From: a virus
Strand: one strand, 5' to 3'
IMG/VR virus record: IMGVR_UViG_3300037141_000279
Coordinates: 1-64,000 of that record
Length of the DNA stretch: 64,000 nt
The position numbers and the translations under genes are program-made. Numbering within the stretch: position 1 is the first letter of the stretch; every line of letters starts with the position of its first letter. The notes below the pieces were generated by a model. That model worked only from the letters and a program-made list of their open reading frames with translations. It was not told the DNA's origin and made no database searches. This document shows, in pieces, positions 8,047-49,005 of the stretch.

Positions 8047-8457
8047 TTAACGAATCATCCCAGGCAGCGTGTACTGCACAATGCGGTGGTGAGCAAGCCG
8101 CCCTTTGCATTTGTTCGGATAGTGGCTGAGATAGATAATCGCAGATTGGAGTTCGTCAGGAGAGTCTTGGAACAGCCCCAAAGCTGTGTTGTGGTTGCTG
8201 CAAATGATGCCTCGGTCGAGCCCAGTCTTATGGCTGTGGTCGAGGCAAGGAGTATTGCCGCTATGCTTCGCCCCGATAGGGTCCATCTGATGTCCGCCGA
8301 TCAAACAGCGACCATGCTGAGCGTCATACCGCGCCTGAAATTCGGCAGGTGTCATCCCTCGACGTGGGCGGCGCAACTTCCTTTGGATTTCTCGTTCGGC
8401 CTCAGCCTTACGAAATTTTCTCAGATGTCCTATGATACTGATGGGCTGGCGACTCAT
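8047..8457 (-). CDS. Endonuclease VII-like HNH nuclease
   Basis: QHGRCLIG...CLDHSH...RGIICSNHNTALGLFQDS. Confidence 0.8.
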   Translation of the reverse strand: MSRQPISIIGHLRKFRKAEAEREIQRKLRRPRRGMTPAEFQARYDAQHGRCLIGGHQMDPIGAKHSGNTPCLDHSHKTGLDRGIICSNHNTALGLFQDSPDELQSAIIYLSHYPNKCKGRLAHHRIVQYTLPGMIR

Positions 8458-8608
8458 GGTGGATTTCTATCCCCCTGAAAACATAATACGATAGTTCGCG
8501 GGGATAGTCAAGCAAAAATTTTTTTTGGTGTAACAAACTTTCATTAAAGGTGTCAAGGCAGTGTAGCCAAGCCCAGCAGCAAGCCAGGACCTCTGGGGTT
8601 TTTCGCCC

Positions 8609-8624
8609 CGCAAGTGGAATGCCA
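8609..8624 (-). promoter_or_regulatory. Sigma54-like -24/-12 motif (leftward)
   Basis: TGGCAT-TCCAC-TTGCG vs consensus TGGCAC-N5-TTGC. Confidence 0.45.
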
Positions 8625-8762
8625 AAGGGACCCCTGCATTTTACTGGCCACACTTTGGCCATGTTCGTGCGTGCGCACATCGCTGTGGAAATGAATGCTA
8701 ACTTCTTTGTTATCAATTGAATGATGGGGTGTGTAGTGTGTCGCGAATGAGTGCGTGGCCTG

Positions 8763-8800
8763 CGCCGCTGCATCGCCGCTGCATCGCCGCTGCATCGCTG
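8763..8800. repeat. 11-bp tandem repeat (CGCCGCTGCAT) x3
   Basis: cgccgctgcat cgccgctgcat cgccgctgcat cgctg seen directly. Confidence 0.8.
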
Positions 8801-8937
8801 ATGATAACGCAGCACTTAGCACGCACACCTCGACTATGACAAAATCATGATTCCGCATAATCATCTACATAACAAAGGACTTATGATGCGCGCTGCGTAT
8901 GACCGTCGCACCCACCTGAGACCTGTTCACATCGCGA

Positions 8938-9978: not shown

Positions 9979-10061
9979 TTAAACTTTTAGAGAGAAAAGC
10001 GCGCGCTTTCTCAAAGAGAAATGACCCTGACCCACCTGAAATGCGACACGCACGTTGCGCA

Positions 10062-11586
10062 CTACGGCTGGATGCCCATGTCTCGCAGCCATTGCTTATC
10101 TGCCTCGGTCATATGCTCATATCGCTCTATCGGTCTGAGCACACCGAACGCATCATACAGCGGACCCATCAGGCTCGTCATGTCGACAGTGAACCCAGCA
10201 TCATGCAGGCTTCTGATCATCGTGGGCTCAGCCAAGAACGCCCGCACGGTGTCCAGATATCGATCCAGTTGTTCATCCATCACCGCCACCTCCAGCCCGC
10301 CCCGTCGCAGGTCCAGACAACCAACTCGATGAACCCGATCACCAGCCCAGCCAATAGGAATCCACTCAAGATTGCCATCACGTGCTCCTCTCTACGCTTC
10401 TGCCTCTACTCAGTCGGTCAAGATTACCCTCGACATGCACAGGGTGCGCCCGCCTCTTTGCAATGATACCATGAAGCGAATATGGTGCAGCCCATCTGCA
10501 ATGCCGACCGCACGTTGCGCTCACCAACTGGCATAGTCTGTGATGTCGGTCTGACTCCCACGCGCATGCTTTGGACAGTCAACCACCACATTCTGTCCGA
10601 TGCCGCTGGCTCTGCTCGCATAGATGCGCACGCCACTCTGGCATTTCGCATGGTCTGCCGTGAATTGCGCCAGGAGCCGCGCCTCCCCTGCGTTGAGCGA
10701 GACACCGTGCCATGTGCCATCCGTCAGTGTGAACTTGCTCATCACAGCCTCCATCGCCGATAGATCAGCAACGCCACTGCGAAAATGAGAACCACGACAC
10801 GCACAGTCTGCATCACCTCAATAAACGTCATCGTCGTCCCCTGCATTCAGCACACCCCAGGCGGCCAGCCCAACACCCAGCAGCAATGCCAACGCTATCA
10901 CAAGCAACACGCCTTCAGCCATCACAGCCTCCCGCCATACTGATCAGTCCAACTCGTACGCTTGAGCCTCCACCGCCACCAGCGATTACGCTGGCGAGCC
11001 CACCAATATCCTAAACACATCACTGCCTCCCCTTTGCAAGCACTTGGATCACCTTCCAAGTCTTCAATCTGTTGTTTCAACTCTGTAGTCTCGGTGCACC
11101 ACGGACAAGTGGTCCCCCGATTCCCCCGATTCCCCTGGTACACCGCCACCGCATAAGCGCCGTGCTCTTCACAGACTTGTTGGATTTGCATTTGCTTCGA
11201 TCCTCAACTCGCTAGAATTGGCCATCGCATGATGACCAGCCAGAGGTCCGTCCTGCTCGGCCAGATGAATACGTTCTCTGTACGCGTCAGGACTCCCTGT
11301 GCAAATGCCATCGCTTCGGCAAGGCTTTGAAAGTACCGTGTGGTCACGCTCCACTGACTCATATCGCTTGTTCGTATCGTTTTCGTATTCATCGCTTGTC
11401 CGCCATTTCAGTCAGCACGCGCTTCATGTACACGACGGGGAATATCCACATCGCAGCCACCAGCACCCAGAAGTTAATGGGAGGCAGTGGATATGCAGCC
11501 ATGATGATCAAGATGCCCAAAACAATTTCAAGTGCCCACCACTTACGCCATGTCATGACTTTGCATCCATGTTGAGATGATAGCAC
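10062..11586 (-). other. Cluster of short hypothetical genes (10062-10289, 10521-10754, 10922-11191, 11204-11392, 11389-11586), some membrane-spanning
   Basis: Coupled minus-strand ORFs behind a TTGACA-17-TATCAT promoter at ~11577-11605. Confidence 0.5.
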
Positions 11587-20415: not shown

Positions 20416-20925
20416 ATGAAGATGACACTCGCAGTAATCGTACTGGCTCTACTCTCGGCAGTTGGTGCTTCGGCTCATAAAGACAAACCTGTAACTCCTT
20501 GCACCGCATATTTCATGGTGGTTGAACAGGATGCCGCCACGGTCAATCTCGCCTTGACTGGACTTAATGGCCCTCAAGCAGATTGGTACAACAAACAGAA
20601 AAACATGAGTATCTGTTTTCTCAGCGCGGATGCATCAGGCAGGGGCAGGCGAGTGGTCGCCGACAAAGATGATTCGACCTTCAATTCGTATGTAGACTCG
20701 AAGGTTGGTTCCACACCCCTTTACATCATCGTTTGGGCAAATCAGCTTCTCTATAACCGTGCGGGGAACGCGTATTATGATGCCAGCGGGACCCTAAACC
20801 TTTGGGACACTAAGAAGCAAGATTTCGTTCCCGTTGGTCCAATCCACAACACAAATGCAACTATCTTTACTTCTTCGTCAGCATCTCTTCTTAAGGCAGG
20901 GATTGCAGAAATAGCACACCAGTAG
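20416..20925 (+). CDS. Secreted hypothetical protein
   Basis: Signal peptide MKMTLAVIVLALLSAVGASA. Confidence 0.65.
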   Translation: MKMTLAVIVLALLSAVGASAHKDKPVTPCTAYFMVVEQDAATVNLALTGLNGPQADWYNKQKNMSICFLSADASGRGRRVVADKDDSTFNSYVDSKVGSTPLYIIVWANQLLYNRAGNAYYDASGTLNLWDTKKQDFVPVGPIHNTNATIFTSSSASLLKAGIAEIAHQ

Positions 20926-20975
20926 TGCTCCCGCCCTTGGCTCCGCTTAGGAGCCTGGGTCGAGGTGCATTAAAA

Positions 20976-21323
20976 ATGAAAATCCTAGTCGTAGACGATA
21001 ACGTCGACATGGCAGAAGCCCTCGCCATGAATCTGGAGTACGCAGGACACACCGTCATCACCGCCCACGACGGCGCGGAGGGTCTCTTCAAATTTCGGGA
21101 GTCCCAATTCTCTAACACTCCGTTTGACGCCGTCGTATCCGATTGGCAGATGCCGAAGATGGACGGTATCGAGATGATTCAACAGATACGCAGAATGGCT
21201 CCACTCGTCAAAGTGGTGCTCGTGAGTGGAGGCGGTCCGCACGTCCCCGAAAGCATCCCGTTTCTCGCCAAGCCGTTCGGACGAGCGGAGTTGCTGGCTG
21301 CCTTGGGGGTTGAATCCAAATGA
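20976..21323 (+). CDS. Stand-alone response regulator receiver (CheY-like)
   Basis: KILVVDD, SDWQMPKMDG (phospho-Asp), SG, LAKPF. Confidence 0.92.
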   Translation: MKILVVDDNVDMAEALAMNLEYAGHTVITAHDGAEGLFKFRESQFSNTPFDAVVSDWQMPKMDGIEMIQQIRRMAPLVKVVLVSGGGPHVPESIPFLAKPFGRAELLAALGVESK

Positions 21324-21511: not shown

Positions 21512-21540
21512 TTGACACTCCAATAGTACTTTGGTACTAT
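21512..21540 (+). promoter_or_regulatory. Sigma70 promoter with a GTAC-N4-GTAC box overlapping the spacer and -10
   Basis: TTGACA-17-TACTAT with GTACTTTGGTAC at 21526-21537; ATG lies 6 nt after -10 (leaderless). Confidence 0.75.
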
Positions 21541-21546
21541 GCATGC

Positions 21547-21849
21547 ATGACCCCTACGGCGGCGTACAAACGCATCAACAAACTAATTTGGTACGGGAGG
21601 CTTCCCGTTGCCGTCATAAAAGTTGTTCCTGACGCCACAATTCCCACCTGCTATGGAATCACATTCCATGATGACCTTGTTGTCCGCCCTGTGATTCTGT
21701 TGAATGCAACAGTAAACCGATGGGGGAAGACTCTCATCCATGAAATGCTGCATGTCGCAGAACCTCGGCTTCAGCACGGCAAAATCTTCGAGGGCTTTGT
21801 CGAACGATATTGGAATATCGCAAGAAAAAAGATCAAGGGGTTGAAATGA
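21547..21849 (+). CDS. SprT-like zinc metallopeptidase
   Basis: TLIHEMLH...HGKIF. Confidence 0.75.
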   Translation: MTPTAAYKRINKLIWYGRLPVAVIKVVPDATIPTCYGITFHDDLVVRPVILLNATVNRWGKTLIHEMLHVAEPRLQHGKIFEGFVERYWNIARKKIKGLK

Positions 21850-22313
21850 AAACGAAGTGCCAGAAGAAGGGGTGCGAACAACCCCACAAGGCCCATGGGT
21901 TATGCAATCGCCATTCTCAGCAGAGATACCGAACACTGTACCCAGAACGCAACAAAGATATCCAACGAAAGTGGCGACAAAACAATATAGAACAGGCGTC
22001 CGTGCGAGACCACCATCACTACATTTTTTCTGGGATCCTCCCATCTTATGTGGGTTTGCCGTTTTGTCCTGCATGGAACCCAAGATGTGGCGGGTCTTTC
22101 CTCGCAGGGGCTCAATGGATTATTGAAAATTTGGGACGCCGACCTAACAACCGCCACCATTTGCACATCGTAGACCGTCACCTTGGTTTTGTACCAAACA
22201 ATTTGGTGTGGGTTCCAAAAGAAAAACACGTTCAAGAAGAAATGCTAAATCGTCTGCTGCTTGAAAACCAAAATTTACGCACTGAAAACGAAAGACTGAG
22301 GCTCACTCAATGA
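21846..22313 (+). CDS. HNH-like homing endonuclease
   Basis: N-terminal CxxxGC...GLCNRH; LGRRP...LHIVDRHLGFVPNNLVW. Confidence 0.7.
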   Translation: MKTKCQKKGCEQPHKAHGLCNRHSQQRYRTLYPERNKDIQRKWRQNNIEQASVRDHHHYIFSGILPSYVGLPFCPAWNPRCGGSFLAGAQWIIENLGRRPNNRHHLHIVDRHLGFVPNNLVWVPKEKHVQEEMLNRLLLENQNLRTENERLRLTQ

Positions 22314-23671
22314 TCGGCAAATCTTGCGGATGGCGCACAAGTTCAGGAAGTCTCGGTCGCAGGAGTTACGGACACGGTCGATTCTTCAAAACTCGCACGA
22401 AGGACGAGGGCAGCGGAGGCGTCTTGTCATACATGGACTATGTGTCTAATGCCGCCAGTTGGGAGGCGTTTCAGCGTCACGAAGTTGATCCGCTTCTATC
22501 CGCTGAAACCCTCCCTGAAATCGGAAGCTTAATTGATTTCAAAGAATTCGCCACAGACTATCCAGATCGGCTGTTTCCGCTGCTAAACCAACTACGTCCT
22601 GAATTTCAAGAACTCTTCATCGAGTACTGGCTTCTGGGCAAATCGCAATCCTTCATCGCTCAATGTCACGGCTTTATTCAAACGCGGACATGGCAGAACC
22701 TTCGAATCATCGAACAGGCAATTGGTGCTCTCATTCTGCTGGGTCCTCGACCCACTGAAGCTACGCTGCGAACTGCTCTCGTCACCATGAACCTGGAAAT
22801 AACCCCGTACGGCAGCCTTGCGCACCTGATTCAACTATATGCATCCACGCAGAGCTACTCCTTCGTCGCTAAATCTGTCGGTGCGCCTATCTCCGCAATC
22901 CGCAAAATCTTTCGTCCTGCCATTGCGTTTCTTCTTGCGGCCAAAAGTGTACAGGCCGTCGCTGTCGGGTCATATTTGCGAAGTTTAATCCATCAGGCAT
23001 CGCTCAAGGGTGTGGGACTCAGCAAGCGGTGCATCGCGCGGACGAGGCGCGTCAAGACCTTGCGATTCAGTGCGCCGCCCACGGACACTTCGCCGCTGAT
23101 CTCGTTCGGCGCGGTTGCATCCCTGCGCGACACTCCGTGGTGCATGCTGGAAATTTCGTCGGAGCATCGCATGACGCAGATCGCACCTGGGCTCAAGGTT
23201 CAAGGGAAGAAAATCTTCGGCAAGCTGCCCGCACAGATATTCGCGCCCGTCAATGCCGAGGGTGAACTGACCTTCGGATATATCTTTGCCCGATGCGCAT
23301 CCGTGTCGCGGGTGCGATCCCTGACTCGTGTGCGCGGTATATCGGAAATGTCGGCTGTCTACAATGACGAAGGTGTCTTCAAGCATGCGGTGACGGTGCC
23401 CCACTCCGATGTCCTGGTCATGATGGAAGACCACGTTGCGCCACCAGTTCCTGATCTACGAGTGCATGACTTTGTGGAAATTCTGACAGGTCCTGCGGCG
23501 CGGTACTGCGGCGCGGTCACAAAGGTGAGTAACGGCGGCGAGGCGATATCTGTAGAAGTAAGGTTCCCAACGGGGCGGCACTTCATTGTGAAGGCGGATG
23601 CCAGTTGCGTCAAATGGTTAGGAAAAGTTCCCGAGGCTCGGCGGTCATTCTGGGGAGTGCGAACCGCTTAG
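22310..23671 (+). CDS. Transcription factor: two sigma70 region-4-like HTHs fused to a NusG-family NGN+KOW module
   Basis: HTH1 LNQLRPEFQELFIEYWLLGKSQSFIAQCHG; HTH2 QSYSFVAKSVGAPISAIRKIFRPAIAFL; NGN PWCMLEI...FGYIFAR...TRVRGI...VPHSDV; KOW DFVEILTGPAARYCGAVTKV...ISVEV. Confidence 0.8.
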   Translation: MIGKSCGWRTSSGSLGRRSYGHGRFFKTRTKDEGSGGVLSYMDYVSNAASWEAFQRHEVDPLLSAETLPEIGSLIDFKEFATDYPDRLFPLLNQLRPEFQELFIEYWLLGKSQSFIAQCHGFIQTRTWQNLRIIEQAIGALILLGPRPTEATLRTALVTMNLEITPYGSLAHLIQLYASTQSYSFVAKSVGAPISAIRKIFRPAIAFLLAAKSVQAVAVGSYLRSLIHQASLKGVGLSKRCIARTRRVKTLRFSAPPTDTSPLISFGAVASLRDTPWCMLEISSEHRMTQIAPGLKVQGKKIFGKLPAQIFAPVNAEGELTFGYIFARCASVSRVRSLTRVRGISEMSAVYNDEGVFKHAVTVPHSDVLVMMEDHVAPPVPDLRVHDFVEILTGPAARYCGAVTKVSNGGEAISVEVRFPTGRHFIVKADASCVKWLGKVPEARRSFWGVRTA

Positions 23672-23947: not shown

Positions 23948-24427
23948 CTAGGAACAACGGATATGCTGATAAAAATCCGCAATTTTTCGTAGTTCTTCTG
24001 CGGTTGCGTCACTTTTCAGTTCGTTAGCCCGCCAACTTACCACAATGACGTTTCCTCGCACATAACCCAAAGCGGGAATAATGCGGTCAAGAGATGGAGA
24101 CGCGTCGCTCTTGCCCGAGACTGACACAACCAATTTCAAACCAAGGACAGGACAAAACTCGGGAATCTGAATGTCATCCACACAGAGGTTGAAAGGAACA
24201 CCCTTTCGTTTTGCATTGCATTTTGCCCGAATTAAAAGGCGTCTCTCTGGGTTTGCCAACCCGTACGCCTTGCTGCGAGCCAAACTATACTCCCGATTTT
24301 CCCGATACTGCTTTTTTCCCGCAGTTAACACTTCTTCCTTGTGGTCCTGATACCGCTGTTTTCCACGAGCCGCATGTTCGTCTCGATGCTGTGAATACCA
24401 ATTCCGCTGATACTCTGGGGATGCCAT
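23948..24427 (-). CDS. HNH homing endonuclease
   Basis: IPEFCPVLG...SPSLDRIIPALGYVRGNVIVVSWRANELK. Confidence 0.88.
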   Translation of the reverse strand: MASPEYQRNWYSQHRDEHAARGKQRYQDHKEEVLTAGKKQYRENREYSLARSKAYGLANPERRLLIRAKCNAKRKGVPFNLCVDDIQIPEFCPVLGLKLVVSVSGKSDASPSLDRIIPALGYVRGNVIVVSWRANELKSDATAEELRKIADFYQHIRCS

Positions 24428-24641: not shown

Positions 24642-24660
24642 ACTCATGGGATAAAAAGTC
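24642..24660 (-). promoter_or_regulatory. Putative late promoter GACT-N8-CATGAGT
   Basis: GACTTTTTATCCCATGAGT. Confidence 0.6.
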
Positions 24661-48396: not shown

Positions 48397-49005
48397 TCAA
48401 TGTTGTTTCAAAAGTCTTATTCTAATTTTCTGTTTTGTCTTTTCAGACACAGCATGCCCCATCAAAGCGGCGCTGATTTTTCGTTTTGTCTCTTCCGAAC
48501 GCTTAGTGCCTGTCAGCCTAACCTTCATTCCCCATCTCGTCGCATCAGAGTGTTTTCGCCCCACGCCAGCCTTGCTAATTTTCTCTCTGGTTTCAGGAGA
48601 CGCTTTCTTTCCTTTTCGGTTATGATTACCTAAAGCGGAAATTCGCATTTTTTCTCGGGCGGCAAGAGTCATCTTTTTTCCTTTATTCCACGGGACGCCC
48701 GTATGCCCTTCGCCACCCCGACAAATGTTGTAACCAACTTCGGGATTCTGGGTATTCAACGATTTAATCAGCAATCGTTCCCAGTAGTCGCAGTCTTCTT
48801 TAGTCTGCAAGTCCGAAAACAGTGGATAAATACTCCACACACCGTGAGGATGAATTCTCATAGATGCGTAAAGATGCGACCGAGTTGAAATCCCTCTCTT
48901 CGCTTCGTACATCTTCTGCTGCAAGTACTGCCGCAGGTTGGTGCCTTTGTGCTGCCCAACATAAATCTTTAGAGTCTCGCTGTTGACAATCACATAGACG
49001 AACAT
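48397..49005 (-). CDS. GIY-YIG homing endonuclease with NUMOD3 repeats
   Basis: FVYVIVNSETLKIYVGQHKG; close paralogue of 40779-41501. Confidence 0.9.
   Translation of the reverse strand: MFVYVIVNSETLKIYVGQHKGTNLRQYLQQKMYEAKRGISTRSHLYASMRIHPHGVWSIYPLFSDLQTKEDCDYWERLLIKSLNTQNPEVGYNICRGGEGHTGVPWNKGKKMTLAAREKMRISALGNHNRKGKKASPETREKISKAGVGRKHSDATRWGMKVRLTGTKRSEETKRKISAALMGHAVSEKTKQKIRIRLLKQH

Follow-up and report, generated by a model that had tools for sequence, protein, structure and literature searches.

Why a phage should place a putative DNA-reading module in front of a NusG-like elongation factor is the question raised by one gene of the IMG/VR virus record IMGVR_UViG_3300037141_000279. The window analysed comprised the first 64 kb of this 96,295-bp record, which is approximately 97% complete. 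The gene occupies positions 22310-23671 of the plus strand and encodes 453 aa, in which a module with a helix-turn-helix (HTH) of the sigma-70 region-4 (sigma4) type precedes the NGN and KOW domains of NusG. These coordinates are exactly those given by a sequence-only reading of the window, and the architecture proposed there, a sigma4-type HTH module joined to a complete NGN-KOW, was borne out by fold and profile comparisons. From sequences and models, we give about an even chance to the reading that the protein is an early-made, DNA-tethered phage NusG paralogue driving late transcription.

The fusion gene is real and under selection, and an assembly artefact is excluded. A search of 5.8 billion proteins yielded 152 homologues of the fusion protein. 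The best 120 of these showed 49-74% identity with a length coverage of 85-100%, and many homologues were located on contigs of 93-107 kb. The ATG at 22310 overlaps the stop codon of the upstream open reading frame (ORF) as ATGA and follows a GAGG by 6-7 nt. Some gene callers take an internal ATG at 22433 instead, which gives a 412-aa form. The start at 22310 is likelier because the first 41 residues are conserved in many homologues. This N-terminal extension (SCGWR..LGRRSYG) is basic and rich in arginine, and disorder is predicted for it; like known arginine-rich motifs, it might bind nucleic acid. Residue numbers below refer to the 412-aa form unless stated otherwise, and 41 has to be added to obtain the ORF numbering.

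The C-terminal half has the fold of NusG. The features on which it had been assigned by eye were real, namely a tryptophan at the start of the NGN domain, FGYIFAR, VRGI and the KOW stretch FVEILTGPAARYCGAV, and they were backed by Foldseek, VIA-align and a family profile. The per-domain structure search proposed with that assignment found matches for NGN, KOW and HTH alike, using Foldseek, VIA-align and profiles. The AlphaFold2 model of the 412-aa form, calculated from 40 family members, had a mean predicted local distance difference test score (pLDDT) of 85.6. In Foldseek searches against the PDB, it matched chains of NusG, RfaH and Spt5 with a probability of 1.0 and E-values of 1e-5 to 1e-4 over approximately 170 columns. 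VIA-align, an all-against-all structural search, placed the NGN domain at residues 230-338. It aligned with Aquifex NusG over 97 aa with Z 8.4 and a root-mean-square deviation (rmsd) of 3.0, followed by E. coli NusG (Z 7.9), RfaH (7.7), the archaeal Spt5 NGN (7.6) and plasmid PrfaH (6.6). The KOW domain was modelled as a beta-barrel with beta strands at 347-395 and a pLDDT of about 90; this single prediction is compatible with fold switching. A profile of the wider family of the NusG-like half, the C-module, matched PDB sequences of the linker and KOW of Aquifex NusG (E 3.7e-7), Spt5 KOWs (E 2.5e-6) and E. coli NusG (E 8e-5). Pfam KOW matches were found in relatives of the fusion protein.

Curated sequence models gave a different picture. 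The fusion protein had no match in Pfam (E<=10), including PF02357 NusG, or in PHROGs. The NusG model TIGR01956 reached 12 bits with a cut-off of 150, at 373-434 (ORF numbering) in the KOW region, and relatives scored 16-17 bits with a curated NusG model, below its cut-off of 22.2. By structure the protein is a NusG, with NGN followed by KOW, and by curated sequence models it is not recognised as one; it is a very divergent branch. These missed models, together with weak profile matches of the KOW domain to the ribosomal proteins L24/L26, would fit a module that acts on ribosomes or RNA like the L24/L26 KOW, or a likeness that is structural only. Such a role outside transcription is most improbable: NGN and KOW stand in the order of NusG and match NusG, RfaH and Spt5 over the length given above, and the module is fused to a transcription domain of the sigma4 type.

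The N-terminal half, the N-module, contains two HTHs. HTH1 (residues 42-104) matched 24 sigma-factor region-4 structures in VIA-align with Z 8-10. The rmsd was 1.1-2.5 Å over 57-65 residues, which is the entire domain, and the matches included SigD4, SigF, BldN, SigL, SigR, sigma32 and sigmaE-r4/DNA. A profile match to SigF region 4 was obtained with E 0.05, and the nearest clusters in the language-model Atlas were all Sigma70_r4 families, many of them viral. HTH2 (residues 117-189) matched generic HTHs only, those of resolvase, LysR, GerE and PerR, with Z of about 5; stand-alone relatives showed weak Sigma70_r4 and Phage_antitermQ matches at the equivalent position. The tandem of sigma4-like HTHs described in the sequence-only reading stands for the first HTH and is plausible only for the second. 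Sigma region 2 was not found before HTH1, where only about 40 modelled residues, one helix and a disordered stretch, are present, and Pfam Sigma70_r2 had no match in the fusion protein. With region 4 present and region 2 absent, the fusion protein is therefore not a sigma factor. Within the N-module family, 12 of 49 members matched phrog_79 'anti-termination protein Q-like' (best E 2e-5) and a few matched sigma-factor PHROGs. One stand-alone relative passed Pfam Phage_antitermQ (PF06530) with 26.9 bits at a cut-off of 26. The fusion protein itself had no match to a Q family in Pfam or PHROGs. The two halves are joined by a connector (residues ~205-230) that had a pLDDT of 72-89 in the full model vs 40-66 in a second model covering just the first 233 residues (pLDDT 85.1). 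Its counterpart in stand-alone N-module proteins is their conserved C-terminal tail (LGxFRI..DPxF..F..RA), and the comparison of the two models suggests that this tail packs on the NGN domain.

Both halves were also found as separate genes. That they are paired across jumbo phages, one of which is available in culture with its host, is new and is the most useful result of the analysis. A HMMER scan of 1.8 billion representative proteins with the family profile gave three classes of matches: a handful of full-length fused proteins, approximately 100 stand-alone proteins of about 245 aa matching the N-module only, and approximately 50 proteins of 190-755 aa in total in which the NusG-like module comes first and a variable C-terminal extension follows. 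In Tunturi_5, a cultured jumbo phage whose host is Tunturiibacter (Acidobacteriota), the two modules are encoded by separate genes. Its gp25, annotated as 'transcription antiterminator', was 29% identical to the C-module of the fusion protein. Its gp346 (L010:4754-5488; PP885688.1 301753-302487) matched the N-module profile end to end with E 4e-101, and the annotation as 'exonuclease' is probably wrong. The Tunturi_5 paper leaves gp25 and gp346 undiscussed. Among 50,697 phage records of GenBank, each module was found in the Tunturi_5 record only, and tblastn of the N-module against GenBank phages gave no match. Tunturi_3 (97.6 kb), a phage close in size and GC content, was considered as a relative and rejected, as it lacks the fusion gene.

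In IMG/VR, 37 viral loci with a stand-alone NusG-like gene were present, mostly on contigs of 140-463 kb. Exactly one full-length N-module was detected in 14 of the 35 searchable records (E 1e-84 to 6e-112). All four records of at least 90% completeness contained it, and all records without it were at most 78% complete. On three small fragments, the N-module was located 1.2-1.7 kb upstream of the NusG-like gene on the same strand. On L051, the N-module ORF (8104-8802) and the NusG-like ORF (9995-11173) lie 1.2 kb apart in the order of the fusion. A NusG-like gene was missing from the sole viral fragment recovered with an N-module only, L035 (16.7 kb; completeness 37%), and locus searches gave no result when P0164, P0145 (metagenomes) or P0152 was the single query. 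Genes that co-occur, are occasionally adjacent and are fused elsewhere show the classic signature of two proteins acting as one unit, and on this genomic evidence the N-module and the NusG-like module are read as a functional pair. In some NusG-like relatives, the C-terminus bears HTH domains of other types instead (HTH_38/GerE in P0168), which suggests that this type of NusG is recurrently tethered to DNA-binding domains. The C-terminal extensions of the stand-alone NusG-like proteins were also considered as a permuted N-module; this was rejected, since hhalign found a generic HTH turn only. Intein/LAGLIDADG-type insertions were seen in a NusG-like and an N-module homologue, P0207 (755 aa) and P0242 (591 aa). 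Insertions of this type are usually found in essential, conserved genes.

A candidate target of the HTH module is the motif GACTTT-N6-CCATAAGT (GACTTT-N6-CCAT-RRRT), which follows an A/T-rich stretch. The motif had been noted earlier; it was confirmed and extended to 16-17 genome copies, all on the minus strand and all intergenic, and it is conserved in relatives. The copies are located in the virion-type blocks (6-49 kb; 82-95 kb), also ahead of the portal operon, whose portal is of the SU10 type. No copy was found in the replication block at 50-82 kb, where the genes for primase, ribonucleotide reductase, helicase and ERF are located. Four related genomes contained 4-14 copies, all on the strand opposite to the fusion gene, and 0-1 copies of a reversed control pattern. 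Across relatives, box 1 was constant and box 2 drifted. In G001, box 2 reads T/A-CATA(A/G)AT. The most diverged phage of the fused clade, G004 (L028-L032; IMGVR_UViG_3300050821_008688; 57% protein identity), has the variant AAGACTTT-N5-TCTAT-ARGT, with CAT changed to TAT in box 2, in approximately eight copies on one strand. The recognition helices were nearly invariant among homologues, vs the motif variants CCAT, CTAT and TCAT, so no co-variation of helix and motif can be claimed. Many copies are followed within 0-13 nt by a Shine-Dalgarno sequence or start codon. The transcript start must therefore lie within the motif, so that the motif is a core promoter or initiation element and not an upstream loading site. 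The two boxes are approximately 12 bp apart, centre to centre. Judged from the sequence, this spacing would suit two HTHs in adjacent major grooves, unlike the spacing of sigma2 and sigma4. The single virion operon of >20 kb that had been claimed does not hold, as motif copies split the block every 1-7 kb (49037, 46959, 46204, 41520, 40795, 37700, 31570 and 24660). Three copies on the minus strand, at 49005, 41501 and genome position 93098, each precede a paralogous small gene starting with MF(V/I)Y(V/A)IV..ETLK; these genes may form a repeated late gene family with its own promoters.

The polymerase that reads these sites is probably that of the host. The ten largest ORFs of the phage gave no match to Pfam families of RNA polymerase (RNAP), and the large unassigned ORFs were without a DxDGD-type motif. 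A single-subunit RNAP (PF00940) was not matched in the phage genome, a weak negative because the control genomes gave no match either. As no RNAP family was found, the phage probably relies on host RNAP. Pfam Sigma70_r2 and Sigma70_r4 had no match in the complete phage genome. An early type of expression is indicated for the fusion gene itself, which is the last gene of a short plus-strand operon behind a SprT-like ORF at 21547 and a 167-aa ORF at 21810; a near-consensus sigma70-type promoter heads this operon (Table 1).

Under the preferred reading, that of a DNA-tethered NusG paralogue, host RNAP would make the fusion protein early from the sigma70-type promoter. The HTH module would then recognise an element of the phage DNA, most likely the motif at the starts of the virion transcription units, and the NGN domain would dock on the clamp helices of RNAP, the site of sigma region 2 and of host NusG. 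RNAP starting at motif sites would be activated, would carry the phage NusG in place of host NusG, or both, and may thereby become resistant to pausing, Rho/NusG silencing and termination. Overall, this would be a specialised NusG paralogue recruited via double-stranded DNA by a Q-like/sigma4-like loader.

The same sites on RNAP could be used in another way. The NGN domain might occupy the clamp helices instead of sigma region 2 and perhaps read the non-template strand, much as RfaH does at ops, while the sigma4-type HTH would sit on the beta flap. Host core RNAP would then be sent to compact late promoters without a -35 element, and the protein may remain bound as an elongation factor; functionally this would resemble T4 gp55+gp33, built from NusG parts. 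The phage lacks a recognisable sigma factor, the motif covers the start site and has no sigma70 geometry, and the sigma4 fold of HTH1 is excellent. Moreover, NGN and sigma2 are established to share the clamp-helix site, and in jumbo phages the modules form a two-protein pair, like gp55/gp33. We nevertheless consider this explanation unlikely, since promoter melting is known for no NusG-family protein, the box distance of ~12 bp misfits the sigma2-sigma4 distance on RNAP, and the second HTH is left unexplained. It is quite unlikely that the NGN domain takes the part of sigma region 2 and, with the sigma4-type module, makes the protein first a sigma-like late-promoter factor and then an elongation factor on RNAP; if true, the lineages of initiation factors and elongation factors would have a natural hybrid in this protein. 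The comparison with known phage sigma substitutes goes in both directions. T4 gp55 (sigma2-like) and gp33 (a flap binder) form a two-part system on the clamp helices and beta flap, the sites that the fusion protein would occupy, and both gp55+gp33 and the 'minimal' single-HTH sigmas of jumbo phages use compact late promoters without a -35 element, as found here. In the fusion protein, however, the clamp-helix binder would be an NGN domain and not sigma2, and no link to a sliding clamp is known.

Several observations weigh against a DNA-tethered NusG paralogue that drives late transcription, in addition to the missed curated models. The motif overlaps the transcription start and recurs every 1-7 kb, so that long-range antitermination is not obviously needed. 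The need also appears weak from the region of 24-44 kb, where only one strong intrinsic terminator was found. Other uncharacterised ORFs could be the reader of the motif. The expected co-occurrence of gene and motif was found within the fused clade; it did not extend to Tunturi_5, which has both modules and contains the motif of the window at chance level only. As gene and motif co-occur within one phage clade only, shared ancestry could explain the link. The absence of the motif from Tunturi_5 also fits a takeover of the host machinery, in which NGN-KOW would compete with host NusG on all elongation complexes, e.g. blocking Rho/NusG silencing of phage DNA or uncoupling host transcription. The sigma4-like module would then bind a protein (the beta flap, a host sigma or an anti-sigma-like factor), and the late motif would be read by another factor. 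Stand-alone viral NusG-domain proteins without HTH do exist (Atlas clusters of 164-184 aa; P0152, P0170), and flap-binding phage sigma4 mimics that do not bind DNA are known (T4 gp33, cited in PMC7824862). This takeover is unlikely. Two consecutive HTHs, with Q-like/sigma4 matches that align at the recognition-helix region, point to DNA binding, and the NusG-like relatives with other C-terminal HTHs, such as P0168, suggest that tethering to DNA has recurred.

Tunturi_5 (L012-L027) has two abundant classes of intergenic motifs of its own. Class A comprises approximately 40 copies of GATAATC/GATATTC-N~20-TGGGTATTA before genes. Class B comprises approximately 30 copies of the hairpin CCAAAGTCATCTTTGG, whose loop is conserved and whose stem extensions covary, followed after ~11 nt by GGTTTGTAGGTTG just upstream of start codons. 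Class B looks like terminator/promoter units or protein-binding hairpin units.

Table 1. Positions of the fusion gene, its domains and associated sequence elements in the window.
Feature	Position	Strand	Basis or remark
Whole gene: 453-aa fusion, sigma4-type HTH module + NGN + KOW	22310..23671	+	ORF, homologues, AlphaFold2 model
N-terminal extension, 41 aa	22310..22432	+	Kept in approximately half of the aligned homologues
HTH1, sigma-70 region-4 fold, ORF residues 83-145	22556..22744	+	VIA-align, profile, Atlas clusters
HTH2, generic helix-turn-helix, ORF residues 158-230	22781..22999	+	
Connector, N-module tail	23000..23119	+	pLDDT of full model vs N-module-only model
NGN domain	23120..23446	+	Structural matches to NusG, RfaH, Spt5
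KOW domain, predicted beta-barrel	23465..23632	+	Profile matches and model
Near-consensus sigma70-type promoter heading the operon, TTGACA-17-TACTAT with upstream TG	21512..21540	+	
Motif copy nearest the fusion gene, candidate target	24642..24660	-	
Further motif copies in the window, end positions	6073, 9978, 13732, 31570, 37700, 40795, 41520, 46204, 46959, 49037	-	
Terminator-like hairpin in the virion block, 15-bp stem and T tract	43554-43521	-	

The surroundings of the fusion gene contain further features. The flanking ORFs at 21810-22313 (plus strand) and 23948-24427 (minus strand) are Cys/His-rich and had no Pfam match. By eye, both showed a repeated basic 'Q(R/K)YR'-type pattern at the N-terminus and HNH-like motifs at the C-terminus, and the two may belong to the homing-endonuclease-like genes. 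The ORF at 20925-21323 (plus strand), immediately before the operon, encodes a stand-alone response-regulator receiver domain without output domain (Pfam Response_reg, E 2.6e-17). The strong terminator-like hairpin of the virion block is directly followed by a match to a sigma70-like promoter (TCGTCA-16-TATAAT with TG).

Among characterised systems, we think that the fusion protein works most like RfaH, LoaP or UpxY combined with a promoter-loaded regulator of the Q type, by analogy of its parts. It shares the two-domain core of NGN and KOW with RfaH, LoaP, UpxY, TaA and plasmid ActX/PrfaH. Like these, it is tied to horizontally acquired DNA and would be expected to replace NusG on a subset of transcription units. 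The RfaH-type paralogues are recruited through the NGN domain by non-template ops or leader RNA and have no extra DNA-binding domain, whereas the fusion protein is phage-encoded and has a double-HTH module of ~230 aa in front. Its KOW domain is predicted as a beta-barrel, in contrast to the autoinhibitory alpha-hairpin of the RfaH KOW. In the lambdoid Q proteins (Q-lambda, Q82/933W type; PF06530, phrog_79), an HTH reads late-promoter DNA and the protein then travels with RNAP. The Q families were matched weakly by relatives of the N-module and not by the fusion protein, so that homology is unproven, and Q proteins, unlike the fusion protein, have no NGN or KOW and act as a nozzle at the RNA exit channel. 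The same NusG-like module is present, as predicted by annotation only, in Tunturi_5 gp25, in Atlas viral NusG/KOW clusters and in a 'NusG-like' gene of an H. pylori prophage. These uncharacterised viral proteins stand alone or carry C-terminal extensions, and none is fused to a sigma4-type module. Prior automatic labels were limited to 'NusG' for some family members (JGI) and 'transcription antiterminator' for gp25.

The sequence-only reading had known of no characterised sigma4-NusG fusion, and the literature searches agreed: no description of a NusG-HTH or NusG-sigma4 fusion was found, no phage NusG was found to have been studied beyond annotation, and the module pairing was undescribed. A 'NusG-like' gene is mentioned, on annotation alone, in one prophage paper, and the comparative genomics of jumbo phages in PMC7824862 covers minimal sigma factors and gp33, not NusG or KOW. 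A precedent for an added NusG domain is domain II of Thermotoga maritima NusG, the sole added domain mentioned in the 2021 NusG review PMC7819879. This domain is an insertion that stabilises RNAP binding, unlike the putative DNA-reading HTH module of the fusion protein.

The putative recruitment of this protein would differ from that of its relatives. To our knowledge, no transcription factor other than NusG/Spt5 is conserved in all life, and the specialised NusG paralogues that we know of are all recruited via the NGN domain itself (ops DNA) or via leader RNA. A NusG with a sigma-region-4 DNA-reading module would represent a third route of recruitment, in which promoter loading as in lambda Q is joined to a NusG elongation module. 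Because NGN and sigma region 2 compete for one site on RNAP, the fusion protein may show merged control of initiation and elongation. In its two-gene form, the system is a gene pair of soil jumbo phages that had gone unnoticed, and the idea is directly testable because the pair occurs in a cultured system, Tunturi_5 on Tunturiibacter. It provides a lead to how late genes may be timed in phages of the Acidobacteriota, a major and poorly studied soil phylum, that have no detectable sigma factor or polymerase of their own.

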